64,000 nucleotides of DNA from NCBI RefSeq assembly GCF_024223415.1, contig NZ_CP100500.1. One strand, written 5' to 3'. The notes under the pieces were generated by a model. The model was not told the DNA's origin. It saw only the letters and a program-made list of their open reading frames with translations, and made no database searches. The stretch comes from Escherichia coli. GTDB taxonomy: Bacteria > Pseudomonadota > Gammaproteobacteria > Enterobacterales > Enterobacteriaceae. The translations under genes were made by a program, and so were the position numbers. Shown here piece after piece: positions 20,995-36,052 of the stretch; the stretch's first letter is position 1; each line of letters starts with the position of its first letter.

Positions 20995-22230
20995 ATGATT
21001 ACACATTTTCGTCAAGCCATAGAAGAAGCGCTGCCCTGGCTTTCCTCATTTGGCGCTGACCCAACGGGTGGGATGACCCGTTTACTTTATTCGCCGGAAT
21101 GGCTGGAAACCCAGCAGCAATTTAAAAAAAGAATGGCCGCAAGTGGGCTGGAAACACGTTTCGATGAAGTGGGGAATTTATACGGTCGCCTGAGTGGCAC
21201 CGAATATCCACAGGAAGTGGTTCTGAGCGGTTCGCATATCGATACCGTGGTTAACGGCGGTAACCTCGACGGGCAATTCGGCGCGCTGGCGGCGTGGCTG
21301 GCAATTGACTGGCTGAAAACTCAATACGGCGCACCGCTGCGTACGGTTGAAGTGGTGGCGATGGCGGAAGAAGAAGGCAGCCGCTTCCCGTATGTTTTCT
21401 GGGGCAGTAAAAATATCTTTGGGCTGGCGAATCCTGACGACGTGCGGAATATCTGTGATGCCAAAGGAAATAGTTTTGTCGATGCGATGAAGGCTTGCGG
21501 ATTTACTCTGCCGGACGCCCCGCTAACTCCGCGTCAGGATATTAAAGCCTTTGTCGAACTGCATATCGAACAGGGCTGTGTGCTGGAAAGTAATGGGCAA
21601 TCAATTGGCGTGGTGAATGCAATTGTCGGGCAACGTCGCTATACGGTGACGCTGAACGGCGAATCAAACCATGCAGGCACCACGCCGATGGATTATCGTC
21701 GTGATACGGTTTACGCTTTCAGTCGCATTTGCCATCAGTCGATCGAAAAAGCGAAAAAGATGGGCGACCCGCTGGTGCTGACCTTTGGTAAGGTGGAGCC
21801 GCGCCCGAATACGGTGAATGTGGTGCCGGGTAAAACCACGTTCACCATTGATTGTCGTCATACCGACGCCGCCGTGCTGCGTGATTTCACCCAACAGTTA
21901 GAAAACGACATGCGGGCGATTTGCGATGAAATGGACATTGGTATTGATATCGATTTATGGATGGACGAAGAACCCGTGCCGATGAATAAGGACCTGGTCG
22001 CCACCCTGACAGAATTGTGTGAAAGTGAAAAACTGAATTACCGGGTGATGCACAGTGGTGCCGGGCACGACGCGCAAATTTTCGCGCCTCGCGTGCCGAC
22101 CTGCATGATTTTCATTCCCAGCATCAATGGGATCAGCCATAACCCGGCGGAACGCACCAATATTACCGACCTTGCCGAAGGGGTCAAAACGTTGGCACTC
22201 ATGCTTTATCAACTTGCCTGGCAGAAATAA
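20995..22230 (+). CDS. allC: Allantoate amidohydrolase
   Basis: 411-aa product from MITHFRQAIEEALPW...; M20 peptidase family. Confidence 0.9.
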   Translation: MITHFRQAIEEALPWLSSFGADPTGGMTRLLYSPEWLETQQQFKKRMAASGLETRFDEVGNLYGRLSGTEYPQEVVLSGSHIDTVVNGGNLDGQFGALAAWLAIDWLKTQYGAPLRTVEVVAMAEEEGSRFPYVFWGSKNIFGLANPDDVRNICDAKGNSFVDAMKACGFTLPDAPLTPRQDIKAFVELHIEQGCVLESNGQSIGVVNAIVGQRRYTVTLNGESNHAGTTPMDYRRDTVYAFSRICHQSIEKAKKMGDPLVLTFGKVEPRPNTVNVVPGKTTFTIDCRHTDAAVLRDFTQQLENDMRAICDEMDIGIDIDLWMDEEPVPMNKDLVATLTELCESEKLNYRVMHSGAGHDAQIFAPRVPTCMIFIPSINGISHNPAERTNITDLAEGVKTLALMLYQLAWQK

Positions 22231-22236
22231 GGAGTC

Positions 22237-22249
22237 ATAAATGGGATAT
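22237..22249. repeat. attL core: left copy of the 13-bp direct repeat ATAAATGGGATAT (includes the native allE ATG)
   Basis: Matches ATAAAAGGGATAT at 33890-33902 in 12 of 13 positions; the allE start codon plus 2 codons are followed by foreign sequence. Confidence 0.6.
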
Positions 22250-22322
22250 ATCTATAACTTATTTTCAATAAGGTATTGATTTAATTAAACAACTTACACT
22301 ACAAAAAGTGCCAAAAATCGCA

Positions 22323-22347
22323 AATTAACTACACCATTAACTACACC
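22323..22347. repeat. Tandem AATTAACTACACC / ATTAACTACACC repeats, left arm (candidate integrase arm-type sites)
   Basis: The same 25-bp tandem is present at 33743-33767 next to int; flanking ~60 bp is also similar at both ends. Confidence 0.5.
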
Positions 22348-22639
22348 GTTCGGCGCACTGTATGAAACAACGTGGAACAAATAGGCACAAGAAATATAAA
22401 GGCGGGTAATTTTAAGGGGGCGTTGCTGTCGATACGGGGATCCACATATCGAGATTGATACCTGGCTTTTTTTCCGGTTAACCTTTAATCAGGCTGGTGG
22501 GCTTTACCTGTTCTGTAGGAGTGGTCATTATGACCATTCAGCCAATGACCTTAATCAGAATTTTTCGCTAAAAAATGACGTTGGCCACGTCATCCGGAAA
22601 GCACAAAATCACGTCGATTTTTAATGGATGGTTAAACCG

Positions 22640-23000
22640 TCTTTTTGTCACGGTGTGTCACTGGTTGTCACGCTCTGTCACGATGTCCGGCCTCCTCACA
22701 TTGAGGATTGTGGAAGAATCAATGGGTTAGTCTTACTACCCAAACTACGGGTAGTTTCCGTAGTTTCATGGTCGAGTTGCAGATCTGCAACTCCCCCATC
22801 AACCACAGGCGAATTTCCGCCTTCGGTCATTCCTTAATCATCTGCGTAATCATAATGATTATTCAGCCACCTCAATTTTGAGGTTTGCTTTAAGTTCAGC
22901 GAGTTACCGCGCCGACTTCCTCAAATTGAGGTTTCCGAAAATATCAGTGGGTTAGCGATTAAGCTGACCATTAATTAAACTGCGAAAATTTCGTAGTTTG
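22640..23000. promoter_or_regulatory. Repeat-dense non-coding region; candidate packaging (cos-like) or TerS-binding region
   Basis: Four TGTCAC copies at exact 10-bp spacing (22646-22681); 20-bp perfect palindrome GAGTTGCAGATCTGCAACTC (22774-22793); three CCTCA-N3/4-TGAGG inverted repeats; no convincing ORF. Confidence 0.35.
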
Positions 23001-23087
23001 TGACTGTCTTTCAGGCAGCTTGTTATCAGTCCTCAGATGTGAGGGATGTAGCCAGCGCAATTTTGCGTTATCGGGAATATCAGCAAG

Positions 23088-23369
23088 TTACCGCCGTAAC
23101 CGTTCCGGCTTCTTCCACTGATAAGTGTTTTTCGCGCTCTCCTGATACATCGCCACGCGTCGACGGTATGCCAGCAACTCTAGTACTCTGATTCGTATGT
23201 CGCGCATATCCACGCCGTTAAGCTCAATACCATCACGGCGCATTACATCAGCAACAACACGCACGTAATTTTCGGCGATCACGCTGTCCGGCTGCGTGGC
23301 CTGTTCGTCATGCTGCTGGCTGATTCCGGTAACGCGGCGGATTAATCCCAGTAGTTCGGCTTCTGTCAT
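23088..23369 (-). CDS. Hypothetical protein (island, distal to head module)
   Basis: 93-aa ORF; no recognisable domain; coding status uncertain. Confidence 0.3.
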   Translation of the reverse strand: MTEAELLGLIRRVTGISQQHDEQATQPDSVIAENYVRVVADVMRRDGIELNGVDMRDIRIRVLELLAYRRRVAMYQESAKNTYQWKKPERLRR

Positions 23370-23423
23370 TGTGCCCCCATCGCTCTGATAGTCTGGTGTC
23401 GTCGGGTCCTTCTGGAATTATGG

Positions 23424-23468
23424 CCCGTTACGGGGCGTCGACCTCGCGGTTTTTCGCTATTTATGAGC
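23424..23468. repeat. Inverted repeat, left copy (flanks the Nu1-like gene cassette)
   Basis: Its reverse complement matches 24169-24212 in about 42 of 44 positions, including a perfect 25-bp core CGCGAGGTCGACGCCCCGTAACGGG. Confidence 0.7.
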
Positions 23469-23661
23469 TTTTTTAGAGGGAGGTTGTTGTTTAATTGTTT
23501 GTCATATCCATTTGATAACTAAGTAAAAATAAAGAGCAATACAACAACCTGATAGTGTTTTTTTGATGCTAAAAATAAAAAAATACTAATTGAATCAAAT
23601 AGTTTTAAAAAAATACGTGGTTGTTGTATTGCGTATTTGATGGCGTAACAGAAAGTGATTT

Positions 23662-24102
23662 TTAACTTTGCTGTTCTGTAACGACTGATTGTTCCATGCT
23701 GGCACGGCGAACGCTTACGGCATGACGCCACCCAGCCAGAAAGCCAGCCATTTTATTTCGTGCCTTGCTCACATCTTCCGGTGAATAGCCGTAAATATGC
23801 AAACCTTCATCAAATCGCTGTTCTGTTTCTTCACTGAAATACTCGTCGCGCTCTGACGCAATCAACCTGGCAACCATAATCTTTTCCAGTGCGCTGGTTT
23901 CTCCGTGGTACTCAATAGCATCAAGATGGCTTTTACCCATGCACCAGAATAATGTGTGTCCGATGTGATAACCGCCGGACTTTCCGCGATCCGCATCAAG
24001 ATATGGCATGCCCTGTTTGGTCCATGCGCGAATAGTGGTTCTGTTGACCTTGAAATGTTCTGCTATTTCCTGCTGACTCACAAAACAAGCTTTATCAATC
24101 AT
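23662..24102 (-). CDS. Terminase small subunit, lambda Nu1-like (HTH DNA-packaging protein)
   Basis: 146-aa ORF; N-terminus VSQQEIAEHFKVNRTTIRAWTKQGMPYLDADRGKSGG parallels lambda Nu1 (..IRTIQNWQEQGMPVLRGGGKG..). Confidence 0.7.
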   Translation of the reverse strand: MIDKACFVSQQEIAEHFKVNRTTIRAWTKQGMPYLDADRGKSGGYHIGHTLFWCMGKSHLDAIEYHGETSALEKIMVARLIASERDEYFSEETEQRFDEGLHIYGYSPEDVSKARNKMAGFLAGWRHAVSVRRASMEQSVVTEQQS

Positions 24103-24168
24103 AATGTTACCTTAATCATGCGATTAAATGTTAATCAAGTGGTGGTGGTGTCACCTTCACGGAAAAAC

Positions 24169-24212
24169 GTCATAAATAGCGAAAACGCGCGAGGTCGACG
24201 CCCCGTAACGGG
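24169..24212. repeat. Inverted repeat, right copy (flanks the Nu1-like gene cassette)
   Basis: Partner of 23424-23468 in inverted orientation; the two enclose ~700 bp containing only the Nu1-like gene and an AT-rich tract. Confidence 0.7.
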
Positions 24213-24233
24213 TCCACATGCCGGAAAGGACCC

Positions 24234-24258
24234 GCAAAAAAAGCCGGATTTCTCCGGC
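24234..24258 (-). terminator. Rho-independent terminator after orf137
   Basis: Minus-strand hairpin GCCGGAGAAATCCGGC followed by a T-run; nearly the same terminator recurs at 26509-26532. Confidence 0.5.
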
Positions 24259-24264
24259 CTTGTC

Positions 24265-24678
24265 TCAGATGGTTTTCAGTATGCGATCGATGTCGCCGTC
24301 ATCGCCCTGGTTTGTGCCATCGTATGCCATGCCAGCTGATACGGCTTTCGGGCTGTGCATGTCCATAAAGTTTTCAAAGGCTGAAGTAAGCTCTGGTGCA
24401 ACCTTCGGGCGTTCCTGCTCTATGGTCATGCTAAGGATGCTTTTAGCCGTACCAACATCGATACAAGGCACGTTAGCCATTGCACGTAACAGCGGCTGGT
24501 AGTCGTCAGATTCATGAAGCGCCATAATCGCATCAGCGCGCGGCTTGTCCTGTTCTTCCAGTTTGTTGAGTCGGTGTATGGCCTCGTAGGTTGATAAACC
24601 TCTGTCAGCCATTGCCCGCGCTTCGGCTTTAAATTTACTCGCCAGCGGTAGCTTCATGATACTTTCATTCGTTGCCAT
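24265..24678 (-). CDS. Hypothetical head-module protein (137 aa)
   Basis: ORF directly downstream of the D-like gene in the same operon; acidic C-terminus; no recognisable domain. Confidence 0.5.
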   Translation of the reverse strand: MATNESIMKLPLASKFKAEARAMADRGLSTYEAIHRLNKLEEQDKPRADAIMALHESDDYQPLLRAMANVPCIDVGTAKSILSMTIEQERPKVAPELTSAFENFMDMHSPKAVSAGMAYDGTNQGDDGDIDRILKTI

Positions 24679-24690
24679 CGTTCCCCCTGC

Positions 24691-25026
24691 TTATCGTGCC
24701 AGCGGCTGAACGGATACGCCGGAACCCGCAAAGGCGGCGCATTTTTTCGCATCGGTGTCGACGCTATCAGGCCAGTTAACGGCGGCAATATTGAATATCC
24801 CCGTTTTGTAACACTGTGCTGATTTCTGCTTTGACGTGTCCACGGGGTGCGAAGTCAGATAAACAGCTTTGCCAGATTCCTGACCATCCCACGCCTTAAA
24901 CTCGCCATTGTCTGCCAGCATCAGCGGGGTAAATTCCTGAATAACGCCAGCATCAGCGGCAAAATGTACCAGCGTCGTGGATACCTGCTGGCTGCCTGAA
25001 AATAACTCAATGTATGGAGCGTCCAT
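24691..25026 (-). CDS. Head decoration protein, lambda gpD-like
   Basis: 111-aa ORF with gpD-like motifs (TPLMLAD..AWDG..KTGIF..WP..AAFAGSG) and lambda D size. Confidence 0.75.
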   Translation of the reverse strand: MDAPYIELFSGSQQVSTTLVHFAADAGVIQEFTPLMLADNGEFKAWDGQESGKAVYLTSHPVDTSKQKSAQCYKTGIFNIAAVNWPDSVDTDAKKCAAFAGSGVSVQPLAR

Positions 25027-25037
25027 AGAATCCCCCG

Positions 25038-26093
25038 TTAAGCAATTTTGACGGTAACAAATTTGCGAATATCTGCCGGTACCGGCTGCGGTGCGCTGTG
25101 CGTCTGCACGTACTCAATCGCCGGATCGCCGTCCTCAATCCAGTTTTTCGGGTAGTACATGTTTTGCGTTGCGCCCGTTCTTACCGCTTCCTGATCCATA
25201 ATCGCACCATATGCCACCAGCCCTTTATTGTTGGTGTTACCCAGGACCAGCAAATCAGGCTCAAGGAAATATTTTTCGGTGCCGTCGCTGTCAGTGTATT
25301 TGCCGGAATAGACGATAAGGGCCAGATCACCAAGATAGCCTTTAAAGCTCACCACTTCGCCCAGGTTTTTACAGGCCAGCTCGGCGGCGGATTCTGACCC
25401 ACGGGAAAGATCGTACAGTTCACGGAATTTTTTAAAGCTGCGTAATGTGCGCCATACCTCACCGCCCATAATCATGACGTTGGCGGGGCAACCTGCCTGA
25501 TCAGCATAAAGCTCGATGTCATAGATTGGGTCGTGCATGTCTTTATCCTGCTGGGACCATTTTTTACCACTGGCCTGCTGTATGATGCAGTTTTCCGGTA
25601 TTTTCCAGTCGATTTCATAGCGTTCTATGCCTTCGCCCTCAATGATGTTTTTTCCGGTCGTTACCGCATTCACCGCCAGCCATTCAACACGCGCTTTAAT
25701 GGCGTTTACCTGGCGGCGCATGTTGCCAGTAATCAGGCGCATACGGCGATAGGTTGGGTCGTTAAGCTGTGCCGGATCTTCTCCAGCCATGCGCATGATG
25801 GTCTTTGTTGGATCGATTTCGTGCTTTGGCTTCATGTAGCCTGGTTTAATCGTGCTGGTTTCGTACCCTTTATCGCGCTGGACCTGACTACCCACCATAG
25901 GAGAACAGAACGCAGACATCGTAACCTCTTCAATGTCCAGGGTGTCCAGCATGATGTTTTGGGTGTTGAAGGTCGCCACGTTCGGGAAAAACAGCGTGGT
26001 AAACAGCGGACTAAATTTAAATTCCGAAATATCCCCGCGATTCAGGTACGCGAAAAGCTGGTTAGTTGTAAGTGCCGTTGCTTTGCCTGTCAT
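25038..26093 (-). CDS. Major capsid protein, lambda gpE family
   Basis: 351-aa ORF with many lambda gpE identities (PGYMKPKHE, DPTYRRMRLI, VVSFKGYLGDLALIVYSGKY, VLGNT, YPKNW..GDPA, SAP). Confidence 0.85.
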   Translation of the reverse strand: MTGKATALTTNQLFAYLNRGDISEFKFSPLFTTLFFPNVATFNTQNIMLDTLDIEEVTMSAFCSPMVGSQVQRDKGYETSTIKPGYMKPKHEIDPTKTIMRMAGEDPAQLNDPTYRRMRLITGNMRRQVNAIKARVEWLAVNAVTTGKNIIEGEGIERYEIDWKIPENCIIQQASGKKWSQQDKDMHDPIYDIELYADQAGCPANVMIMGGEVWRTLRSFKKFRELYDLSRGSESAAELACKNLGEVVSFKGYLGDLALIVYSGKYTDSDGTEKYFLEPDLLVLGNTNNKGLVAYGAIMDQEAVRTGATQNMYYPKNWIEDGDPAIEYVQTHSAPQPVPADIRKFVTVKIA

Positions 26094-26299
26094 TATTCAC
26101 CTCCGTGAACCTGATTGATACCCAGCGCCGCACGTAAATAGGTGCGCACCTGCCAGCCTGTTGACGGCTCAACCATCGCCAGCGGATCAAGTCCTGCCGC
26201 AATGCCTGCTTTTACATTCTGCTGGTGGCGTTCCTTGAGCGCCTCCACGATGTCGGGGCTTATGTAGACCGTCACCCCGCCTTTTTTCTCTTCTGCCAT
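26093..26299 (-). CDS. Hypothetical protein translationally coupled to the capsid gene (68 aa)
   Basis: ORF whose stop overlaps the capsid gene start; no recognisable domain. Confidence 0.45.
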   Translation of the reverse strand: MAEEKKGGVTVYISPDIVEALKERHQQNVKAGIAAGLDPLAMVEPSTGWQVRTYLRAALGINQVHGGE

Positions 26300-26508
26300 A
26301 GTCAGAAATTCCTCTTTGACTTAAAAAATCATAACTGGATGTTCATCCAGTCCTGATTATAATCATGATTGCATTTTGTGCAATAATGTTGAGTTGTGTT
26401 GCAAATTATGAAATGATTATCCCGATCATGTGTGTCAGTGCACCATAAAAAACCTCGTATACAAAAGCCCGATAAGCCCCCTGTGACCTTATCGGGCTTT
26501 TTTTAGGC

Positions 26509-26532
26509 GTAAAAAAGCCGGATTGCTCCGGC
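26509..26532 (-). terminator. Rho-independent terminator after the PerC-like gene
   Basis: Minus-strand hairpin GCCGGAGCAATCCGGC followed by a T-run. Confidence 0.5.
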
Positions 26533-26539
26533 TGTGTGC

Positions 26540-26812
26540 TCACTTCTGCGGGTAGTTGCGCCATATTGCTTTGCCAATACCAGCTATCCCCATTTGTTTT
26601 TCAGTGCGATTAACTGACCTTTTCAGAGCGCCTAAATCATCCGGCGGCTCCGGTGGCCTCTGTGCCTTCCGTGAACATTCCAGCCGTCGCATTGCCACCT
26701 GTGCGCGTTCCTTGTCTGTCTCCACCAGCATCATCACTTCACCCCATCGCGCGGCCGCCCTCCGGTAAAATCCTTTCGCCTCCAGTTCCTCCGCTATCCG
26801 GTCATGTACCAT
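26540..26812 (-). CDS. PerC-family transcriptional regulator-like protein
   Basis: ORF 26540..26932; likely start MVHDRIAEELEAKGFYRRAAARWGEVMMLV, resembling PerC-family proteins; assignment from memory of the family. Confidence 0.5.
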   Translation of the reverse strand: MVHDRIAEELEAKGFYRRAAARWGEVMMLVETDKERAQVAMRRLECSRKAQRPPEPPDDLGALKRSVNRTEKQMGIAGIGKAIWRNYPQK

Positions 26813-26822
26813 CGTCACCCCC

Positions 26823-27233
26823 TCAGAACGGAATATCATCACCGTAAGGGTCATCGCCTCCCGCTGGTGGCTGATTACCCTGTGTGCCTGTGGTTTTGCG
26901 TCTGTTCCCGCCAGGACGTGCCGCACGGGCACTGATTACGCTGTCTGCGATGACCTGCCAGCCCTGCCGCGTTTCGCCGTTCTGGCCTGTCCACTGGCTT
27001 ACCTGCATGTTACCCGCCACGCTCACCAGTTCGCCTTTGTGGTGTCTGGCCAGTGCGTCGGCCTGTCTGCCAAACGCCAGGACGGATAACCACATCGTCG
27101 CCGTTCCGTCATCTGCCTGGCTGCATGGCAGGGGAACCGCCATACTCGCCATCGCCATTTGTGTCCCTTTGCTGGTCTGTTTTGTCTGCGGGTCGTCCAC
27201 CAGCCGCCCGTAAGCCGCTATCTGTGCTGTCAT
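26823..27233 (-). CDS. Single-stranded DNA-binding protein (SSB)
   Basis: 136-aa ORF with OB-fold-like N-terminus, Gly/Pro-rich linker and the canonical acidic SSB tail ...GDDIPF. Confidence 0.8.
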   Translation of the reverse strand: MTAQIAAYGRLVDDPQTKQTSKGTQMAMASMAVPLPCSQADDGTATMWLSVLAFGRQADALARHHKGELVSVAGNMQVSQWTGQNGETRQGWQVIADSVISARAARPGGNRRKTTGTQGNQPPAGGDDPYGDDIPF

Positions 27234-27487
27234 GCTGTCTGCTCTCCGGTTTTAACATTGATGGTTGTCACCTGTTCCGCTCCGGCAATCTCCCGCTCTG
27301 TCAGCGTGGCAAAGTTTGCCGCCGTCGTTGTCATGAATGCGCTTATCAGTTCGGGATGTGCTTTCGCGTATCCTTCCCCCGTGTTGCGGTCGATGATTTT
27401 TATCGCCACCCTCAGCCAGTGCTCTGTAAGGTCAATGGCGCGGTTATGTGATTTCTTCTGATTGTTAAATTTTTCTGATGTGTGCAT
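27230..27487 (-). CDS. Hypothetical protein (85 aa) upstream of ssb
   Basis: ORF overlapping the ssb start by 4 nt; no recognisable domain. Confidence 0.45.
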   Translation of the reverse strand: MHTSEKFNNQKKSHNRAIDLTEHWLRVAIKIIDRNTGEGYAKAHPELISAFMTTTAANFATLTEREIAGAEQVTTINVKTGEQTA

Positions 27488-27529
27488 TTTTATTTTTACC
27501 CCCTCGTTTAAAAAGTTTTGAGTTGTGGT

Positions 27530-27770
27530 GCACCTCCTCTACCTCTCTACACAATCATCTTTCAGGTCAGTAATGGCGCGGCTTTCAGCGGGGTAGAGGG
27601 CTTTTTTGGCCCTCTACCCGCCATCTACCACCCCCTCACAAATGCCCTGAATTATGGTAGAGGGTGTAGAGGGCTTTTAAGTACCTTCTACCTGCCATCC
27701 ACCCAATCTATCCACATGAAATATATGTAATTATTTTCTTAAGGTAGAAGGGGTAGAGGGCTTTTGTCTA
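27530..27770. repeat. Iteron array; candidate replication origin of the island
   Basis: At least six copies or variants of GGTAGAGGG(C)TTTT and its complement CCCTCTACC in about 240 bp of non-coding DNA directly 3' of the primase gene. Confidence 0.6.
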
Positions 27771-27773
27771 AAA

Positions 27774-29522
27774 CTATAAAAACGCGTCGCAGTCGTCTGT
27801 TGTTGTCACGTTGGTTTGCGTAAACCCTTTAATCCTGCGCGTTATATATTCATGACCGTAAACTTTCGCCGCTGGCTTCATGGCCTTGCTGAACTCAGCC
27901 ACGTTCAGCGGTTTGCTCCTGCCTGCATACGCCATAAACGCCAGATAGACGCGGTAAAGGCTGTTTCTGGTCGTGTACTTCACTGAATCGCCACCGCCGC
28001 CCATCATCAGGCCACGTGCTTCCTCCAGAAAATTCAGGAACTGGCAAAACTCAATAACCGGATCCGTCTGTTGCTTTATTGCCAGAGCTTCATCACCGTC
28101 TCGCTGTTCAATGAGTAAAGCCCGTGCCTTTTCAGGGTCGGCAAAGTTCGCCAGCAAGCGGCGGATAATGACAGGGATTTCAGCCGCGATCTTTTCCGGT
28201 AGCTCCCTGTCTTTTTCTGCCTCGCTTACGATGTTATCGAACCGGAATATCACCCGACGACGTGACACGCCTCCTGCCCGTTCGGTGAATATCATCGGGT
28301 TATTATTGGTTGCCAGCACAACCGCCCTGATTACCGCCGTGAATCGCTTTTCATATTTCGGGTTGATTTCCACGGGGTCGCCGCCCGTGATTTTCTTGAT
28401 GCCCGTTCCTTCGCCTGTATATTTCGGCTGGTCTGCCAGGACAATAAGCCTACTCCCGACAACCTGCGCACGCCCACCAGCATCATCAAGCGATGTCATC
28501 TCAGCGCTTACCGTGTTCTGTTTCCCTGCCAGAAGGCTGGCTATGTGTGTGAATGTACTTTTACCGCTCCCGCCGTCTCCGGTGGCCTCAATAAACATCT
28601 GCCAGTCGTACCGGTTCGCCATAATCATGTACAGCGCGGCACATATACGCATCATCTTGCGCGGGTCTTTTCCGGCAGCGTGATCAAGCCATTTATGAAA
28701 GTTTGGCGCGTTGTCGCGGATATTCTCACCTGGTACTGGCGGCGTGTACTCAATGCCGTTGTGTGTGGTGATCCAGTTCTCCGGCGTGTGCGGGGAAAAT
28801 TCCCCCGTTTTCAGGTCAAGCGCACCATTGGCGAACGGCAGCAAATCGCCGGACGGCTCGCCCATTGGTTCGGCAATAACTTTTAACGCTTCCACGGCGT
28901 TACTGATTACGCGCTTGCTGAAAGTGGCCCTGTGCTCTGAATAGATCGCCACCATTTCGCGGCTCAGTTCCATTGTGCTGACCGGACACCATACCCCGCC
29001 GCGCCATACGTGAACGATTTCACTTTCCAGATGCACACAAACGCCATCAAATCGACCAGCAAGCATCTGTGCGCGCTCACTGTCTGCCATTTGTGCCAGT
29101 TGCGTATTTTTCTGCTCCGGCATGGTAAGCCCTGCGGCAATATTTTCACGCTCAGCATTCAGATAGCGCCGCCAGTTTTCACACTTCTGACCGTGCATTC
29201 CTTCAGAGTAAAAATTCGCATCCTGAATATCTGCCGCCGCCAGCTTCTGACCAATCTTTTTGGTCTCCACTAAATCCAGTTCTCCGGCCTGGTACAGCCT
29301 TACGCGTTTTTTTCCATCCGGAACAATTTTCAGCGCATCAAGTTCAGCAAGCTGATTTGGCCCAAGCCACACAGGCGGCACATTATCGCCGGATGCGGGA
29401 CCGTCCTTCTCCTGCCACTGTTGTGCATGCGACCAGGCATCACTACCCGCAAAGATAATTACCTCTGTGTCTTTGTGTTTTATTCCGCGTGGCTGTTTTT
29501 TTACGTTCGGTGCCAGTTTCAT
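27774..29522 (-). CDS. Phage/plasmid primase-helicase (P4 alpha family; D5_N plus P-loop NTPase)
   Basis: 582-aa ORF; Walker A GDGGSGKST; architecture and size typical of satellite or PICI Pri-Rep proteins. Confidence 0.85.
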   Translation of the reverse strand: MKLAPNVKKQPRGIKHKDTEVIIFAGSDAWSHAQQWQEKDGPASGDNVPPVWLGPNQLAELDALKIVPDGKKRVRLYQAGELDLVETKKIGQKLAAADIQDANFYSEGMHGQKCENWRRYLNAERENIAAGLTMPEQKNTQLAQMADSERAQMLAGRFDGVCVHLESEIVHVWRGGVWCPVSTMELSREMVAIYSEHRATFSKRVISNAVEALKVIAEPMGEPSGDLLPFANGALDLKTGEFSPHTPENWITTHNGIEYTPPVPGENIRDNAPNFHKWLDHAAGKDPRKMMRICAALYMIMANRYDWQMFIEATGDGGSGKSTFTHIASLLAGKQNTVSAEMTSLDDAGGRAQVVGSRLIVLADQPKYTGEGTGIKKITGGDPVEINPKYEKRFTAVIRAVVLATNNNPMIFTERAGGVSRRRVIFRFDNIVSEAEKDRELPEKIAAEIPVIIRRLLANFADPEKARALLIEQRDGDEALAIKQQTDPVIEFCQFLNFLEEARGLMMGGGGDSVKYTTRNSLYRVYLAFMAYAGRSKPLNVAEFSKAMKPAAKVYGHEYITRRIKGFTQTNVTTTDDCDAFL

Positions 29523-29818
29523 TTTTTACCCCTGAATACGTTAAGCATCTTTTTTATTTCCTGAATATTGGCGCGTGCTTTCTCCCTGCTGGTTGGTTTA
29601 CTGCGGGGCGCTGCCTGTACCAGAGAAAAATCACGCCGGAACTGATAAACAGGCATCACGCAATCATATTCGTAGCCTTCACGGCGGTAAGTGATGCGCC
29701 GTTCCTCCACGCCTTTAATCGTTACCGTGCCGCCGTACTGGTCGCGGTAAATATCGCCGTTCATAAATTCAGGCCGAGCGGGGCCGCTGGCATTAACGCC
29801 AGTATTTTTCATTCCCAT
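29519..29818 (-). CDS. Hypothetical protein (99 aa), translationally coupled to primase
   Basis: Stop overlaps the primase start by 4 nt; basic protein of unknown function. Confidence 0.5.
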   Translation of the reverse strand: MGMKNTGVNASGPARPEFMNGDIYRDQYGGTVTIKGVEERRITYRREGYEYDCVMPVYQFRRDFSLVQAAPRSKPTSREKARANIQEIKKMLNVFRGKK

Positions 29819-29822
29819 ATAA

Positions 29823-30065
29823 TTAAATTCCGTTTGTGTGGTGTTTTAATTCGTCAATTTTTTCTAATGCTTTGTTTATCTTGCTGGTGGAAATATCCAG
29901 CAATTCAGAAATAGCAAATATAAGTCTTGCCGTTGATTCATCTCTTTCGTTGTTTGACAGCAATTGAAACCACACGTTTGTAATTTCAATTGCCGAATTA
30001 TTATAGGTTATTGCACTGTTCATGTATTCCGACACCTCTGCAAGCGAAAGTTTATTATTCTCCAT
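29823..30065 (-). CDS. Hypothetical protein (80 aa), AT-rich accessory gene
   Basis: Locally AT-rich ORF within the minus-strand operon. Confidence 0.4.
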   Translation of the reverse strand: MENNKLSLAEVSEYMNSAITYNNSAIEITNVWFQLLSNNERDESTARLIFAISELLDISTSKINKALEKIDELKHHTNGI

Positions 30066-30246
30066 AACGTTCTACCCTCTCATCAATTAACCACAGTGCA
30101 ACACTTCCTGACAGTCTTGCCAGAAGGCCAGCTAATGCGGATATATCATCATCATTTAATTTATTAGGGTACGCTTCAAGAAGTCTGCAAATAATTTCGG
30201 TTTGGTGGGCGCGTTCAGCGGCTTCGTGTAATGTAATTTCCTTCAT
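30055..30246 (-). CDS. Hypothetical protein (63 aa)
   Basis: ORF overlapping its neighbours by a few nt (operon). Confidence 0.4.
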   Translation of the reverse strand: MKEITLHEAAERAHQTEIICRLLEAYPNKLNDDDISALAGLLARLSGSVALWLIDERVERYGE

Positions 30247-30431
30247 TAATGCACCTCTTTTAATTCATACACTGCTGAAATAATGACTTGTGATAAGCCA
30301 TATTCTGATGATTCGCTTCTCACCGCAGCAATAGCCGTCTGAACATTAACAGCCTTCACATTCTGAGCGATACCAATTGTGTGGCCTAGTGGGTTAACAG
30401 CTCGGGCAAATACACGGAAGGTTTTAAGCAT
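30246..30431 (-). CDS. Hypothetical protein (61 aa)
   Basis: ORF overlapping its neighbours (operon). Confidence 0.4.
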   Translation of the reverse strand: MLKTFRVFARAVNPLGHTIGIAQNVKAVNVQTAIAAVRSESSEYGLSQVIISAVYELKEVH

Positions 30432-30789
30432 GGCGCACCCCCTGAATAACCTGATATCCGCAACTGGTCAGCAATTCGATAAATTCCGGCAGAGTGCCAA
30501 AACAGCAATCAGTGCGTAGCTGTTCGCAGGATACCTCAACGCCGTTTTCGTAATGGCTCACTATGCGCCCGGTAAAATGCGGATCATCATCGTGATGGCA
30601 CGTTGACGGTTTCATCAGCCGCGCGCGTTCCGCCAGTTCCAGCAATGCTTCAACGCTTCCGGCAATTGCACCATCCGGCAGGTGATAATTACTTACTACG
30701 CGTCCATTCTCTACATTGACCAGTAGCTGTCCGGTAAATTTCTCACGAAACTGAACGCGGTTAAGATCGGTAAGTGACAGGTTAATCAT
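30424..30789 (-). CDS. Hypothetical Cys/His-containing protein (about 122 aa)
   Basis: ORF track 30424..30831; ATG at 30789 overlaps the upstream gene stop (ATGATTAA); contains CHHDDDPH...C..CC, a possible metal site. Confidence 0.45.
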   Translation of the reverse strand: MINLSLTDLNRVQFREKFTGQLLVNVENGRVVSNYHLPDGAIAGSVEALLELAERARLMKPSTCHHDDDPHFTGRIVSHYENGVEVSCEQLRTDCCFGTLPEFIELLTSCGYQVIQGVRHA

Positions 30790-30979
30790 GGCACACCTCC
30801 TGACGAATACGGGCGGCGAATACAGCGACACAACCGGACGGGCAACGGTTACGCGCTTCGCGTTCTGTCCAGGCGGTCACGTGGATAATTTGAGATTCTC
30901 CGGCACTCAGTGCCAGAAAACGCCACACAAAGGCGGTTTGTGTGTGCGCAAGGCGTGGGGTATGCTGTGTTCCAGCCAT
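30782..30979 (-). CDS. Small protein resembling P4 Icd-like / Ash-family (host cell-division inhibitor-like)
   Basis: 65-aa ORF MAGTQHTPRLAHTQTAFVWRFLALSAGESQIIHVTAWTEREARNRC...; SD GAGGT 7 nt upstream; first gene of the leftward operon; family assignment tentative. Confidence 0.4.
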   Translation of the reverse strand: MAGTQHTPRLAHTQTAFVWRFLALSAGESQIIHVTAWTEREARNRCPSGCVAVFAARIRQEVCHD

Positions 30980-31069
30980 AATCGTTACCTCAATTAATGG
31001 TTTGGTTAGAAGCCCGTTGGTGTTCATAGCGCCAGCGGGCTTTGTCTTTTCATCGATTACCTCAATAAA

Positions 31070-31151
31070 GGTGTCAGCCACTATACTAGTAACAGGTGTC
31101 AGCCACGTCAATAGTGTTTTTCCATTTTCTTGTGTGTATACTGTCAGCCAC
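31070..31151. promoter_or_regulatory. Three direct repeats of (G)GTGTCAGCCAC in the divergent promoter region (candidate operators)
   Basis: Copies at about 31070-31081, 31095-31106 and 31141-31151, between the leftward icd-like operon and the rightward RHH gene; a TATACT -10-like hexamer abuts copy 3. Confidence 0.5.
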
Positions 31152-31172
31152 CTAATAACAAGGAAATCAGAT

Positions 31173-31352
31173 ATGGCAACGAAAGCAGTTAATGGAAAAT
31201 CCAAAAAACTTGAGGCACGAGTCCCCCATGCAATAGCTGACGCTTTAGAAAATTTAAAGGAAGAAGGCGAAAGCACTGGGCAATTTATCGTTTCGGCACT
31301 TGAAGGCGAGATCAAACGCCGCCAGCGCCGGAAGGCCAAAGAATCAGAATAA
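31173..31352 (+). CDS. Small RHH/Arc-like DNA-binding protein; candidate island repressor
   Basis: 59-aa ORF MATKAVNGKSKKLEARVPHAIADALENLKEEGESTGQFIVSALEGEIKRRQ...; SD AAGGA; transcribed divergently from the replication operon. Confidence 0.55.
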   Translation: MATKAVNGKSKKLEARVPHAIADALENLKEEGESTGQFIVSALEGEIKRRQRRKAKESE

Positions 31353-31400
31353 TCACTATCAGCGCCGTGGTGTGAGGTACTGCGGCGCATTGTTTTAAAG

Positions 31401-31601
31401 GTGATAATTATGAATAACCAAGAACTACAAAATAAAGCATTATCAATTATCATGCGCCAGCGTGAGAAAACCCGCAGGGAAATAAATAAGGCATTAACCC
31501 GCACTGAAAATCTTAAAGTTCCTGATAAGTTCGCCCTTGATCCTTTTGTCGAGAAATACCCTCGGCGCTTAAAAGCAAACAAAAACCGCCCACCTGGCTG
31601 A
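31401..31601 (+). CDS. Hypothetical protein (66 aa) downstream of the RHH gene
   Basis: Short ORF on the same strand as the RHH gene, before a plus-strand terminator. Confidence 0.3.
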   Translation: MIIMNNQELQNKALSIIMRQREKTRREINKALTRTENLKVPDKFALDPFVEKYPRRLKANKNRPPG

Positions 31602-31758
31602 CAATCCACCAGCAAGCCAGGACACTGATCACATTGGCCACCGTGACAGGTGGCCTTTTCTTTGCCCGTTATCCGGCAATTGTGGCGCTTCGCCACACGG
31701 TTGATATAATCCCACTGCTCATATTCATTTTTTGCGCAGTAGGTTAATTGTTCAGAAA

Positions 31759-31787
31759 GGCGGCTCCTTATCGGGGCCGCTTTTTTT
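31759..31787 (+). terminator. Rho-independent terminator ending the rightward RHH transcription unit
   Basis: Hairpin GGCGGCTCC-TTATC-GGGGCCGC followed by TTTTTTT. Confidence 0.45.
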
Positions 31788-31928
31788 ATGTCTGAAAAAC
31801 CGCGATTTTGTTGTTTTTCAGTTTCACAAGGCCGAACGAAGCCCCGCCCCTGTTCGGGCGTATATCCAGTCTTCATGGTTAAATCTCTGTATTAGTGGAT
31901 GGGTGGCGGCTGTGTGCCGCCAGTCTTT

Positions 31929-32117
31929 TTAGTGAACTGCCTCGCAGCTTTCCTTCCATGCCAGAACTTCGGATAAAGACCAGCCAACGGAACGACCGCC
32001 CAGCTTACGCCGTGATGGGAATTGTCCGGCCTTTTCCAGGCGGTAGCGGCATGAGCGGCTAAGCCCTGTTAGCTTTTCGCATTCTTTTTCACGTATAAAC
32101 CGATCAGTGCTTAACAC
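31929..32117 (-). CDS. alpA: AlpA-family phage regulatory protein (excisionase/activator-like)
   Basis: 62-aa ORF ...KLTGLSRSCRYRLEKAGQFPSRRKLGGRSVGWSLSEVLAWKES, the AlpA HTH signature; adjacent to int. Confidence 0.8.
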   Translation of the reverse strand: MLSTDRFIREKECEKLTGLSRSCRYRLEKAGQFPSRRKLGGRSVGWSLSEVLAWKESCEAVH

Positions 32118-32409
32118 TATTGCCCCCTTTCGTTTCTTAAAGAGTTATTTCGTGTTCTATTGCGTTGGTATGTGTCTGATTGTGTCAGGGTGATTCAGAG
32201 TTGGCAAATGTTGGTGGCGGGTATTTTACAGAAACGGGGTTATTTTAATAAAAAACATTTTAATTCAGTATTATGCAAAGGCATAAAATCTCGTTTTATG
32301 CCTTTTTTCTCACTATTTAAAGCGTTATTCGCTAATGTATAAAAAACCAGTTGAGCATTAAAAATCAGCAACTTATAAATCTGTATACTTTTTGGCCTCT
32401 TGTTCGTGG

Positions 32410-32443
32410 TTGTTTCACGTTGTTGCGTATTGTTTCACGTTGT
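32410..32443. repeat. Two direct repeats TTGTTTCACGTTGT between int and alpA
   Basis: Identical 14-mers at about 32410-32423 and 32430-32443 in the int-alpA intergenic region. Confidence 0.4.
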
Positions 32444-32491
32444 ATCTGTGCACTTATCCAGTATGCGCATACTGAAAAAACACGAAAAAAA

Positions 32492-33742
32492 TTATTTTCT
32501 TCTGGTTACTGGTAGCGTGGTTACGTTTTCATGTGCTCCCGCCAGTATCTCCAACCGCTCCACCCACATATCCAGCGCATTGCGTTTCGCATCCAGATAA
32601 CGGGAATGATTATAAACTCGCTGCATTCCTGGCATCTGGTGGCCTGTAAGCTGCTCCACGACGTGAGGATCCACGCCTAAATCGTTCAGCATCGTTGTAA
32701 AGGTGCGCCGGATGTCATGCAGTGACCAGTGAGGGTGTTTAAGCCTCCTGTGCGCTAATCTTCCATACTGCGATACGCTGGCCTCCTGTTTCACTTCCCC
32801 CAGCAATAAGCCCGTGTGCCTGTTCTGCTCCACCAGCTGCGTGACGAACGGCAGTATCGCTTCCGGTATGGGCCGGAATATGGCTACCTTCGTTTTGCTG
32901 TGCTCCTTCGGAACGGTCCATAGCATTTCGGTAAAATCCCACTCCCCGATCTCCGATAGCCTCAGTTCTACTGTCCTGGCTCCGAAGACAATCAGGAGGC
33001 GGATTAGTGCGACGTAGTAAGGGGAAAATATTTTTTTGTCCAGTGCCTGCAATAATTCGCCAAGTTCTTTGTTACTTAAGACACGCTGACTTATATCCGG
33101 TTTTTTCCCAACGTCAGCAACACTCATATCATCAAGAACGTTGCTGATTGCATAGCGCCGCTTCCGGCAGAACTTAAGCGCCTGTTTGCATGTCTGTAGC
33201 AGGAATCCGGCGGAAACAGGGGCTTGCTTTGCCACCCGATCAAAACAGGCCAGCCAGTGCCGTAGCTCGCATTTATCCAGCGGCATAGCACCAATCTGCT
33301 GTATTACGTGATTATTAAGTCGCCTTTTCAGGGCGATATAATCCACGCGGTTTTCCTTTACGTAATACTCAAGCCAGTAGGTAAGCGCATCGCCAACCGT
33401 TACAGGCTTTAACGCTTCCTGTACGGTGTAATTCATCTCATGACGTGGATTTTTCCCCTCAGCCAGCCATGCGCGGCACTGTGCGGCTTTTTCCCTGGCT
33501 GCTTTCAGGCTCAGATCAGGATAATTTCCCAGCTTAATCCGTTCCGGTCGTGCTCCCCTTCCCGTTCCGGCCCTGTAGGTGAAATACCAGGTTAAAAGGC
33601 CGCTGGTTGAATGCCTGACGGTCAGGTTTCCACCGTCATTAAGAAAGACTGTTTTTTGGGCGGGTGTGCCGTTGATTTTCCTTAGCTGTGTATCGCTCAG
33701 TTTGTTAAGTGCTCTGCGCATAATTTTGATTCCGGTCATCAC
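32492..33742 (-). CDS. int: Tyrosine recombinase/integrase (P4-like, DUF4102 N-terminus)
   Basis: 416-aa ORF; N-terminus ...LNDGGNLTVRHSTSG...WYFTYR; C-terminal catalytic region HDIRRTFTT...VYNHSRY; lies at the island edge next to attR. Confidence 0.9.
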   Translation of the reverse strand: MMTGIKIMRRALNKLSDTQLRKINGTPAQKTVFLNDGGNLTVRHSTSGLLTWYFTYRAGTGRGARPERIKLGNYPDLSLKAAREKAAQCRAWLAEGKNPRHEMNYTVQEALKPVTVGDALTYWLEYYVKENRVDYIALKRRLNNHVIQQIGAMPLDKCELRHWLACFDRVAKQAPVSAGFLLQTCKQALKFCRKRRYAISNVLDDMSVADVGKKPDISQRVLSNKELGELLQALDKKIFSPYYVALIRLLIVFGARTVELRLSEIGEWDFTEMLWTVPKEHSKTKVAIFRPIPEAILPFVTQLVEQNRHTGLLLGEVKQEASVSQYGRLAHRRLKHPHWSLHDIRRTFTTMLNDLGVDPHVVEQLTGHQMPGMQRVYNHSRYLDAKRNALDMWVERLEILAGAHENVTTLPVTRRK

Positions 33743-33767
33743 AATTAACTACACCATTAACTACACC
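33743..33767. repeat. Tandem AATTAACTACACC / ATTAACTACACC repeats, right arm (candidate arm-type sites)
   Basis: Identical to 22323-22347; located immediately upstream of the int start. Confidence 0.5.
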
Positions 33768-33889
33768 GATCGTTGCACAAAGGGCTACAACGTGAAACAA
33801 GCTGGAACAAGAAAAATCACAAATTTGTTTATAATCAAAAACATAATGCACAACCTGAAACATTATGAAACGGCAAAAAACACTAATTG

Positions 33890-33902
33890 ATAAAAGGGAT
33901 AT
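33890..33902. repeat. attR core: right copy of the 13-bp direct repeat (ATAAAAGGGATAT)
   Basis: 12 of 13 match to attL; a TAA stop and AAG replace the native ATG start of allE. Confidence 0.6.
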
Positions 33903-34679
33903 TTAAATAACGTCACCGGTTACCGCGATGATTTACTGGCTAACCGTGCGATTGTGAAACACGGTAATTTCGCACTGTTAACACCAGACGGTCTGGTAAA
34001 AAATATTATTCCGGGCTTTGAAAATTGTGACGCGACAATCCTCTCCACGCCAAAGCTGGGTGCCTCTTTTGTTGATTATCTGGTCACACTGCATCAAAAC
34101 GGTGGCAACCAACAGGGCTTCGGTGGCGAAGGCATTGAAACGTTCCTGTATGTGATCTCTGGAAATATCACTGCCAAAGCCGAAGGCAAAACATTTGCCT
34201 TAAGCGAAGGTGGCTATCTTTATTGCCCGCCAGGCTCCTTAATGACGTTTGTTAACGCCCAGGCCGAAGACAGCCAAATCTTTTTATATAAGCGCCGCTA
34301 TGTTCCGGTAGAAGGCCATGCACCGTGGCTGGTTTCTGGCAATGCCAGCGAACTGGAACGCATTCACTATGAAGGTATGGATGATGTGATCCTGCTGGAT
34401 TTTCTGCCCAAAGAGTTAGGTTTTGATATGAACATGCATATCCTCTCTTTTGCACCAGGTGCCAGCCATGGTTATATCGAAACACACGTTCAGGAACACG
34501 GTGCCTATATTCTTTCCGGTCAGGGGGTTTATAACCTCGACAATAACTGGATCCCGGTGAAAAAAGGCGATTACATCTTTATGGGCGCTTATTCTTTACA
34601 GGCTGGTTATGGCGTAGGGCGTGGTGAAGCGTTCAGCTATATTTACTCGAAAGATTGCAACCGCGACGTAGAGATTTAA
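33897..34679 (+). pseudogene. allE: Ureidoglycine aminohydrolase gene truncated at its start codon by island insertion
   Basis: Reading frame GYLNNVTGYRDDLLANRAIVKHGNFALL... resumes at 33897 with no ATG; an in-frame TAA lies 2 codons upstream; first in-frame start is GTG at 33954. Confidence 0.8.
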
Positions 34680-34721
34680 GTCATACCACTCGCCTGATTA
34701 TTTTTAGCTATGTTGGATTTT

Positions 34722-34748
34722 GCCACGGTTTATACCGTGGCTTTTTTT
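34722..34748 (+). terminator. Rho-independent terminator after allE
   Basis: Hairpin GCCACGG-TTTATA-CCGTGGC followed by TTTTTTT; a REP-like palindrome follows. Confidence 0.55.
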
Positions 34749-34906
34749 GTAACATTGCCTGATGCGCTTCGCTTATCAGGCCTACATGATCTCTGCAATA
34801 TATAGAATTTGCGCGATTTTCAGGAAGGATATAGTGCTCATGCAGCATCCGGCATGAGCACTGCGCTCTTATACGAAATAAATCGCATCCGCTTTAAAGG
34901 TAAGGG

Positions 34907-36052
34907 TCAGTTTTTAATTCCCTGACCTATTTTAATGGCGCAGGCAATATTTCGCGCGCTGTTGAAGAGATTGGTTTCACCGCTGGCGAGCACTTCGGCT
35001 AAAGGTGCCAGACGAGGCAAAATGCTGAATACCGCGTCAATGCCGTACTGGTGCACCACTTCCACGCCATCACCCAATACGCCAGCAATCCCAATCACCG
35101 GTACATTAAACTGCTTCGCCACCGACGCAACGCCCAGCGGCGCTTTACCGCCTGCCGTTTGCGAGTCAATGCGCCCTTCCCCGGTGATCACCAGTGCTGC
35201 CCCCTGCACCGCCTGCTCCAGGTTGACCGCACGCAGTACAATCTCAATACCCGGTTTAATATCCGCATTGAGAAATACCGCCGCCGCAATACCCATACCG
35301 CCCGCAGCGCCGCCGCCCGCCATCTGACAGACATTAATTTCAGTTTGCTGTTGTAAAACACGGGCGTAATTTTGCAGCCCCTGTTCCAGCTCTTCGACCA
35401 TCTCCGGCGTTGCCCCTTTTTGCGGGCCAAACACCGCCGCCGCGCCGCGTGCCCCTACCAGCGGGTTATCAACGTCACATGCTACTTCAATATGGCAGTT
35501 CGCCAGACGCGGATCGCATTCATCCATCTCAATGCTTGCCACGCGCGCTAAATTGCCGCCGTTAGCCACCAGCACCTGACCGTCGGCATCAAGGAAACGC
35601 ACACCGAGCGCCTGCGCCATGCCCATACCGCCGTCGACCGTCGCACTGCCGCCAATGCCGAGAATAATATGGCGAATGCCGTTATCCAGCGCATGACGAA
35701 TTAACTCCCCCGTACCAAAACTGGAGGCCAGCAACGGATTACGCTTTTCAGGCGCGACCAGCATCAGGCCACTTGCTGCCGCCATCTCAATCACCGCCGT
35801 TTTCCCGTCGCCGGTAAGGCCATAAAAAGCATTCACTTTTTCGCCCATCGGCCCGCAGACTTCAAGCGTCACGATGTTGCCGCCCGTCGCGGCGACCATC
35901 GCATCCACCGTCCCTTCGCCGCCATCCGCTATCGGCAAACAGATATAGTTCGCATCGGGAAAGAGGGTCGAAAACCCGGCTTTAATTGCCTGACAACATT
36001 TTTCTGCACTTAAGCTCTCTTTAAAAGAGTCTGGCGCAATGACAATCTTCAT
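34907..36052 (-). CDS. glxK: Glycerate 3-kinase
   Basis: 381-aa product from [20 protein letters not shown]... Confidence 0.9.

Follow-up and report, generated by a model that had tools for sequence, protein, structure and literature searches.

The window analysed here is a 64-kb stretch (64,000 nucleotides) of Escherichia coli DNA (contig NZ_CP100500.1 of assembly GCF_024223415.1), which harbors at 22323–33817 an integrated, AlpA-type phage-satellite island of 11.4 kb. Between the alpA gene and the replication operon of this island lies a small rightward gene for a 59-residue protein with a predicted ribbon-helix-helix (RHH) fold, and the gap that separates this gene from the divergent Icd-like gene contains three copies of a short repeat. 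The protein and its repeats, which probably constitute a repressor and its operators, are the subject of this analysis. The features concerned are the following (positions in the window, strand in brackets where assigned):

31173–31352 (+), RHH gene, 59 aa, YlcI/YnfO family, candidate repressor
31140–31152, candidate operator O3, ACTGTCAGCCACC (core 31142–31151); its core begins on the final base of the rightward −10, and the site spans the predicted rightward start
31137–31142 (+), −10 element TATACT of the rightward promoter P_R, at a fixed offset from the start codon and kept as TATACT, TATAAT or CATACT
31083–31111 (−), leftward promoter P_L, sigma-70-like: −35 TTGACG (31111–31106), 17-bp spacer, −10 TAGTAT (31088–31083)
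31095–31106, candidate operator O2, GGTGTCAGCCAC (core 31097–31106), within the 17-bp spacer of P_L
31070–31082, candidate operator O1, GGTGTCAGCCACT (core 31072–31081), one base past the leftward −10 and covering the predicted leftward start at ~31076
31009–31043 (+), conserved terminator-like hairpin with a T-run to 31053, situated between O1 and the first codon of the Icd-like gene, within the 5′ leader of the leftward operon
30974–31007, small hairpin around the Icd-like ribosome-binding site; compensatory changes are seen from locus to locus
30782–30979 (−), Icd-like gene, first of the leftward operon
30424–30789, 30246–30431, 30055–30246, 29823–30065 and 29519–29818 (−), five small open reading frames (ORFs)
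27774–29522 (−), primase gene, P4-alpha-type
27774–30979 (−), the putatively regulated leftward operon as a whole (Icd-like gene, five small ORFs, primase)

A previous, sequence-only reading of this DNA had described a rightward 59-residue ORF with a Shine-Dalgarno sequence, a leftward series of an Icd-like gene, five small ORFs and a primase, and three direct repeats in the ~190 bp between them, and all of this was borne out. The RHH gene starts with an ATG at 31173, preceded 8–9 nt upstream by AAGGAA, and the two divergent genes are separated by 193 bp from start to start. The repeat TGTCAGCCAC has exactly three perfect copies in the entire window, at 31072–31081, 31097–31106 and 31142–31151 (+), all within 80 bp; with one mismatch allowed there are 12 matches against 3.1 ± 1.6 expected, a number reached in none of 100 shuffles of the window. 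Copies 1 and 2 extend to AGGTGTCAGCCAC. The feature is thus real and non-random. One repeat had been said to abut a TATACT hexamer; the adjacency is genuine, yet it concerns two copies and not one, as TATACT follows copy 1 (31082–31087) and precedes copy 3 (31137–31142). The former hexamer is, on the minus strand, part of the −10 region of P_L, which scores 9/12 in a consensus scan. The most telling point beyond the earlier reading is that sites 1 and 2 are placed on the core elements of a leftward sigma-70 promoter which is itself conserved. Judged by established promoter mechanics, sites in a promoter spacer and over the transcription start represent the classic geometry of repression, and a site over a gene's own −10 and start that of negative autoregulation.

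The 59-residue protein matches the NCBIfam model NF041551 (YlcI/YnfO family) with 62.1 bits against a cut-off of 30, and RefSeq gives its homologues the same label. Its only profile matches are to YlcI/YnfO, phrog_949 (without assigned function) and phrog_6522; no Pfam match appeared even at E ≤ 10, and profile search found no chain in the PDB. Assignment to the RHH class consequently relies on the predicted fold and on sequence motifs. A confident AlphaFold model (pLDDT 86.8), computed with 26 homologues, has an extended N-terminus followed by two helices, that is, a beta-alpha-alpha fold, and the alignment carries an RHH signature: inward- and outward-facing residues alternate over K11–V17, R16 is invariant, P18 precedes helix A, and the G32-E33-S34-T35 turn ahead of helix B is near-invariant, with positions 12 and 14 being hypervariable. 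The protein is accordingly predicted to belong to the MetJ/Arc superfamily of RHH proteins. The family is small, comprising 89 clusters at 50% identity in a profile search of 1.84 billion representative proteins; tblastn found no homologue in 50,697 phage records, and the searched literature contained no functional study of it. Some members are longer, at ~100 aa (L005, 4726–5031, and L063), with a ~40-residue, probably helical insert between helix B and the basic C-terminal tail.

The locus was compared with 64 loci with relatives of the protein, taken from one genome per species, and with four E. coli loci, giving 68 in total. All are from Enterobacterales, with genera including Xenorhabdus, Pectobacterium, Yersinia, Serratia, Enterobacter, Kosakonia, Proteus, Morganella, Edwardsiella, Dickeya, Raoultella and others. 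A common gene order recurs, in which the primase and the first gene of its operon run leftward, the RHH gene runs rightward, and alpA and int follow leftward; AlpA homologues were detected to the right in 44 of the 68 loci and primase homologues to the left in 28, counts that are limited by the 3-kb flanks and by divergence. In all 68 loci the three sites lie about 101, 76 and 31 bases upstream of the RHH start codon, in a layout constant to a few bases. Throughout, after O2 comes (G/T/C)TCAA, the leftward −35, and O3 is preceded by (T/C)ATA(C/A)T; the best minus-strand promoter match starts at −62 ± 1 in 53 of 64 loci, with a −35 of the form TTGA[CAG]G.

The sites share a pseudo-palindromic frame, (G)GTG-N5-CAC(C), across loci, and their five-base core varies in ~18 classes that track the sequence of the protein's beta-strand. 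Examples, given as residues 11–17 plus PH or PL, with the operator of the class, are:

KKLEARVPH, operator TGTCAGCCAC (E. coli, Xenorhabdus, Pectobacterium)
QALKARVPH, operator TGTGGCCCAC
KRFDVRVPH, operator TGTCGGACAC
QKMSARVPH, operator CTGGCACCCA
QQLNARFPH, operator TGAATCGCAC
LQVSVRLPL, operator TGAACACCAC
QMTTVRIPH, operator TGAAATACAC

The three sites of a locus change in concert: taking one representative per class, within-locus identity is 77%, as compared with 57.9 ± 1.5% after shuffling, and none of 10,000 shuffles reaches the observed value. When the window is aligned with Xenorhabdus and Pectobacterium loci of its own class, the sites are 97–100% identical and the other intergenic bases 55–59%. 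Among all 59 protein columns, the O3 core is best predicted by columns 14 (r = 0.54) and 12 (r = 0.51), statistics that carry no correction for phylogeny and for which the comparison between columns serves as an internal control: columns 27, 30 and 54–59, which are equally variable, give r near 0 against the operator core. In an RHH sheet, the residues expected to touch bases are the alternate ones that point outward, here 12, 14 and 16. O1 reads as the reverse complement of the other two sites in six classes, a flip that fits a symmetric dimer and speaks against a directional element; in several classes O3 is a weaker copy of the core.

Natural exchanges of the cassette point in the same direction. 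An island in E. coli Ch1 (locus L001, 9300–9620) is ~100% identical to the window on both flanks of the region, and only 53–72% identical over ~31000–31315, a stretch that comprises the hairpin, both promoters, the operators and codons 1–48 of the RHH gene; in L001 it bears two copies of TGTGGCCCAC and one of TGTTCCCCAC. Repressor and operators have thus been swapped together as one cassette, much as in the immunity regions of lambdoid phages. The protein of locus L003 is a chimera, with an N-terminal half of the window type and a C-terminal half of the L001 type, and its operators are still TGTCAGCCAC; thus, specificity travels with the N-terminal half. A candidate fourth operator at 31594–31603 (TGTCAGCCAG, inverted) was rejected, because L001 keeps the same sequence despite its other operator class, and it is probably a chance occurrence. 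DNA-level matches to the cassette (31040–31352) occur in 484 of 5,426 complete E. coli genomes.

The proposal of the earlier reading that an RHH protein diverges from the replication operon, with the repeats as its operators, is therefore strongly supported by the fold model, by the architecture of the 68 loci, by the co-variation at positions 12 and 14 and by the cassette swap. In our assessment, the 59-residue protein and its three sites probably form a class-specific, autoregulated repressor/operator cassette that controls the replication operon of a Gram-negative satellite; an off-switch is very likely because protein and sites change together in more than 60 related islands. From sequence, fold prediction, fixed architecture, co-variation and cassette exchange, we infer binding, repression and exit from repression along the following lines. 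One RHH dimer would bind each of the three GTG-N5-CAC sites, with residues 12 and 14 of the paired beta-strands reading the variable five-base core and the invariant R16 probably reading the constant GTG/CAC frame. Since O2 lies in the spacer of P_L and O1 over its start, bound protein would keep RNA polymerase off the Icd-like/primase operon and the integrated satellite quiescent, and O3, over the −10 and start of the RHH gene itself, would mediate negative autoregulation. With an exchangeable cassette in ~18 classes, each island would answer only to its own repressor.

How such a switch might be released, and which other explanations deserve consideration, depends on neighbouring features of the island:

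31410–31601 (+), second gene of the rightward unit, 63 aa, without family match
31636–31655, terminator closing the rightward two-gene unit
31929–32117 (−), alpA, excisionase/activator family (phrog_2790, E = 1.3e-17), convergent with the RHH unit
32492–33742 (−), tyrosine integrase gene (int) of the island
27590–27765, three GGGGTAGAGGGCTTTT iterons, likely replication origin, just downstream of the primase gene

Our best guess for induction, which is speculation, is that AlpA, once induced by the helper, would switch on the alpA promoter, from which transcription would proceed leftward into the operon, crossing the RHH gene in antisense on the way; an anti-repressor from the helper phage may share in this. 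Pseudomonas AlpA is a processive antiterminator (PMC7969949, PMC9371919). The sequence-only reading had cast the locus as a candidate lysogeny-type switch that resembles the Staphylococcus aureus pathogenicity islands (SaPIs) and is released by a helper phage, with AlpA as a separate activator or excision factor. The role assigned to AlpA agrees with the literature and the repressor/operator core stands; however, nothing tested supports the SaPI-like release, given that AlpA is the known helper-responsive element and that the RHH protein has neither homology to the SaPI repressor Stl nor an obvious sensor domain.

Several observations weigh against a repressor that silences the integrated island. 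In the studied Gram-negative phage-inducible chromosomal islands (PICIs), overproduction of AlpA alone induces, deletion of alpA blocks induction, and no repressor needs to be invoked (PMC6092414). No sensor domain is evident in so small a protein, P_R has no recognisable −35, and no motif longer than 8 nt that might be an AlpA site is common to the regions of the alpA promoter and of the operators. The O1–O2 spacing ranges from 22 to 35 bp between classes, so that cooperative binding is not obviously constrained, and the co-variation statistics are, as stated, uncorrected for phylogeny. Finally, islands residing in the same genome differ in class in 19 of 20 pairs, which is not significant against a random expectation of 17.9; exclusion of same-class islands within one genome was therefore rejected as no better than chance. 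Three pairs of RHH loci overlap on one contig (L006/L053, L033/L034 and L065/L066), with different operator classes within each pair; owing to this overlap, the paired islands lie a few kb apart and are probably tandem.

An alternative is that the RHH protein binds its sites as a feedback damper, like plasmid CopG or phage Cro, and after induction would limit copy number or the expression of the replication operon, the silence of the integrated island resulting from the absence of AlpA. We regard this as unlikely, but as the more serious rival, since EcCICFT073 needs AlpA for its induction and overproduced AlpA is enough to induce it; induction of EcCIEDL933 also needs AlpA. A protein without a sensor domain would suit such a role, and the weaker O3 core in several classes would fit homeostatic autoregulation. 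By contrast, P_L looks constitutive unless repressed, as its near-consensus −35 and 17-bp spacing are kept across genera. Moreover, the operon opens with an Icd-like division inhibitor and unscheduled replication is harmful, and the RHH gene is divergent from the replication operon, whereas that of CopG lies within it.

The conserved hairpins in the leader of the operon raise another question, namely whether the main control might be exerted by a rightward antisense RNA that ends at the 31009–31053 terminator and blocks translation of the first gene, leaving the RHH protein to tune only itself. Over 62 loci, the pairs of this hairpin are standard in 98% of cases on the plus strand and in 89% on the minus strand, and only on the plus strand does a U-run follow. 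The plus-strand RNA of 30972–31056 folds into two stem-loops (−35.2 kcal/mol, z = −6.2; minus strand, z = −2.8), one loop of which exposes an anti-Shine-Dalgarno sequence. Together, this suggests that the hairpins resemble the 3′ part of a putative ~80-nt rightward antisense RNA over the translation start of the Icd-like gene, and there is a precedent in P1, where icd is controlled by the c4 antisense RNA. Against such control, however, no convincing plus-strand promoter with a good −35 was found for the RNA; the conserved TATGCT/TAGACT was rejected as one, as it is explained by the codons for QHTQT at the N-terminus of the Icd-like protein. The leader RNA matches no Rfam family, with C4 and isrK giving no hit at E ≤ 1 in 22000–35000 nor at E ≤ 10 in 30750–31200, and the placement of O1 and O2 on P_L would be left unexplained. 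We therefore give this explanation very little weight as the main control, although antisense control could coexist with RHH repression instead of replacing it.

It is equally improbable that the repeats are origin iterons or a partition (centromere) site and not transcriptional operators. They are short direct repeats close to a primase operon, and centromere repeats are known targets of RHH proteins, among them ParG and omega; nevertheless, the island has the separate GGGGTAGAGGGCTTTT iterons downstream of the primase gene, where PICI origins lie, spaced by 73 and 87 bp and distinct from the candidate operators. In addition, the window, L002 and L003 have the same operators, yet their replication proteins are unrelated to one another (a D5-type primase, a DUF927 protein and a primase-family protein), the sites following the RHH protein and not the type of replication protein. 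No ParA-type partner is present, and the sites coincide exactly with promoter elements. The iteron or centromere explanation was rejected on the strength of the separate iteron set and of sites that track the RHH protein.

The least probable alternative, a type II toxin-antitoxin pair in which the RHH protein is the antitoxin, the 63-aa ORF the toxin and the repeats an autoregulatory operator, can draw on the many RHH antitoxins among the best structural matches (CopA(SO), MazE6, ParD, TacA) and on the small ORF that comes next in the rightward unit, but was rejected because this ORF is not conserved: it lacks a toxin family match, was detected in only 3 of the 68 loci (the window, L001 and, weakly, L005), outside the conserved module, and in Xenorhabdus islands alpA follows the RHH gene within about 220 bp; besides, the opposite promoter carries two of the three sites. 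A terminator-like hairpin at 31362–31388 separates the RHH gene from the 63-aa ORF, and hairpin and ORF both recur in L001 and L004.

A repressor/operator cassette of the proposed kind would have both counterparts and contrasts among known systems. Like Stl and Rpr of SaPIs and other Gram-positive PICIs, the RHH gene is divergent from the operon for excision or replication, the candidate operators lie in the divergent region, and the presumed role is quiescence of an island with int, a primase operon and an origin located past the primase gene. Stl, however, is a much larger helix-turn-helix protein that is inactivated by specific helper-phage proteins, whereas here a 59-residue RHH protein stands alongside the activator AlpA. 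The family searches, which returned only YlcI/YnfO, phrog_949 and phrog_6522, gave no sign of homology to Stl or Rpr; no direct comparison with the Stl sequence was included.

The immI region of P22 comprises the RHH repressors Mnt and Arc and the sar antisense RNA, and that of P1 consists of c4 RNA, icd and ant. The locus has in common with these regions a small candidate RHH repressor divergent from the operon that it would repress, putatively autoregulated and with its operator overlapping the promoters, and a possible antisense RNA over the ribosome-binding site; its operon opens with an Icd-like gene, as that of P1 immI does. It differs in that there is no relation to Mnt or Arc at the sequence level (no Pfam match), that three separated, dimer-sized sites stand in place of one 21-bp operator, that the operon contains a primase instead of an antirepressor, and that there is no c4-type RNA. 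Satellite P4 has its immunity function (CI RNA/seqA) in the same position, between the alpA/vis homologue and the primase operon, and the cassette would likewise confer immunity; P4, however, relies on an RNA that forces premature termination, whereas here no C4 or isrK RNA is detectable and a protein with candidate operators on the promoter takes its place. The sites of omega (pSM19035) are contiguous heptads and not 25 and 45 bp apart as here, and CopG (pMV158) is encoded within the rep operon and not divergently from it. The mechanism is nonetheless of a well-known kind, as exemplified by P22 Mnt/Arc, omega and CopG.

The published AlpA-type PICIs EcCICFT073, EcCIEDL933 and EcCIMP1, the only ones for which helper-phage induction and transfer via AlpA are known, resemble the island closely, with int, alpA, Icd-like/DUF4222/primase or RepA, iterons, a PerC-like gene and a capsid gene in the same order. 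They have been understood by an activator-only model with unidirectional genes, whereas here a rightward repressor cassette lies between alpA and the replication operon. The global repressor of Gram-negative PICIs was called “unclear” in 2018 (PMC6092414), the paper on capsid-forming PICIs does not mention repression, and a 2023 survey (PMC10111431) lists Bro-N proteins and P4-like CI/seqA RNAs in the zone between alpA and the replication genes. A search of the literature for an RHH or master repressor in satellites or PICIs returned nothing relevant; by that measure, the occurrence of such a repressor in satellites of this type, the modular classes of its specificity and the assignment of a first, predicted function to the uncharacterised YlcI/YnfO family would be new.

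A related arrangement appears at 5367–5584 of L004, an EcCIEDL933-type island from O157:H7. There, on the strand opposite to an Icd-like pseudogene of the RefSeq annotation, lies an unannotated 57-aa ORF (5411–5584, +) with a match to PHROG 228, “Arc-like repressor” (E = 1.5e-6); its score with NF041551 is 18.7 bits, below the cut-off. It is preceded by two exact copies of GGTAATTACCATGT (0.05 expected), the second followed by GTCAA, and the same hairpin is present. A small RHH protein with its own repeats thus seems to be a general occupant of this position, the Arc-like form having been overlooked for want of annotation.

Taken more widely, and tentatively, AlpA-type Gram-negative satellites may have a master repressor after all, in the shape of an exchangeable, protein-based immunity cassette that would consist of an RHH protein, back-to-back promoters that carry three class-specific operators and, possibly, an antisense RNA covering the ribosome-binding site of the first gene, in at least ~18 YlcI/YnfO specificities plus an Arc-like form, with AlpA or a helper-phage protein overcoming the repressor. 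This generalization is less likely to hold than the assignment for the locus itself. The locus provides a concrete repressor candidate with defined operators and with a promoter and specificity residues that are predicted, so that the question of the PICI repressor becomes directly testable. The ~18 natural protein/operator pairs on one scaffold could serve as orthogonal repressor parts. Should it be the cassette that determines immunity specificity, this would have consequences for the coexistence of satellites and for the engineering of PICI-based “antibacterial drones”.

As to the island as a whole, it is bounded by direct repeats (22323–22397 and 33743–33817, identical over the first 26 nt) and adjoins allantoin-utilisation genes. 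It has the features by which Fillol-Salom et al. (2018) recognise Gram-negative PICIs, namely int, alpA, a primase, an origin downstream, attachment-site repeats and a size of ~10–15 kb, and its gene order is that of AlpA-type Gram-negative PICIs (PMC6092414, PMC10111431). Its alpA and int are 92–100% identical to those of a typical E. coli island, and one of the five small leftward ORFs encodes a DUF4222 protein. The left part encodes SSB, a PerC-like regulator and major capsid, decoration, scaffold-like and small-terminase-like proteins. Because it has capsid-type genes of its own and no portal, protease or large terminase is encoded in its 11.4 kb, the island fits neither the classical PICIs, which have no capsid genes, nor the full capsid-forming type; according to the 2023 survey (PMC10111431), Gram-negative PICIs commonly carry capsid genes.

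Between the rightward unit and alpA, a hairpin with a flanking A-run and T-run at ~31759–31787 is possibly a bidirectional terminator, and a plus-strand terminator at 31904–31922 abuts the alpA stop codon. Within the stretch that matches window positions 31660–31929, a frameshifted small gene is annotated in L001. Beyond the island, two enterobacterial sRNAs, STnc480 and ES036 (CssrF), are matched above the Rfam gathering score at 34686–34752 and 34778–34820 (−), in the interval from allE/ylbA to glxK.

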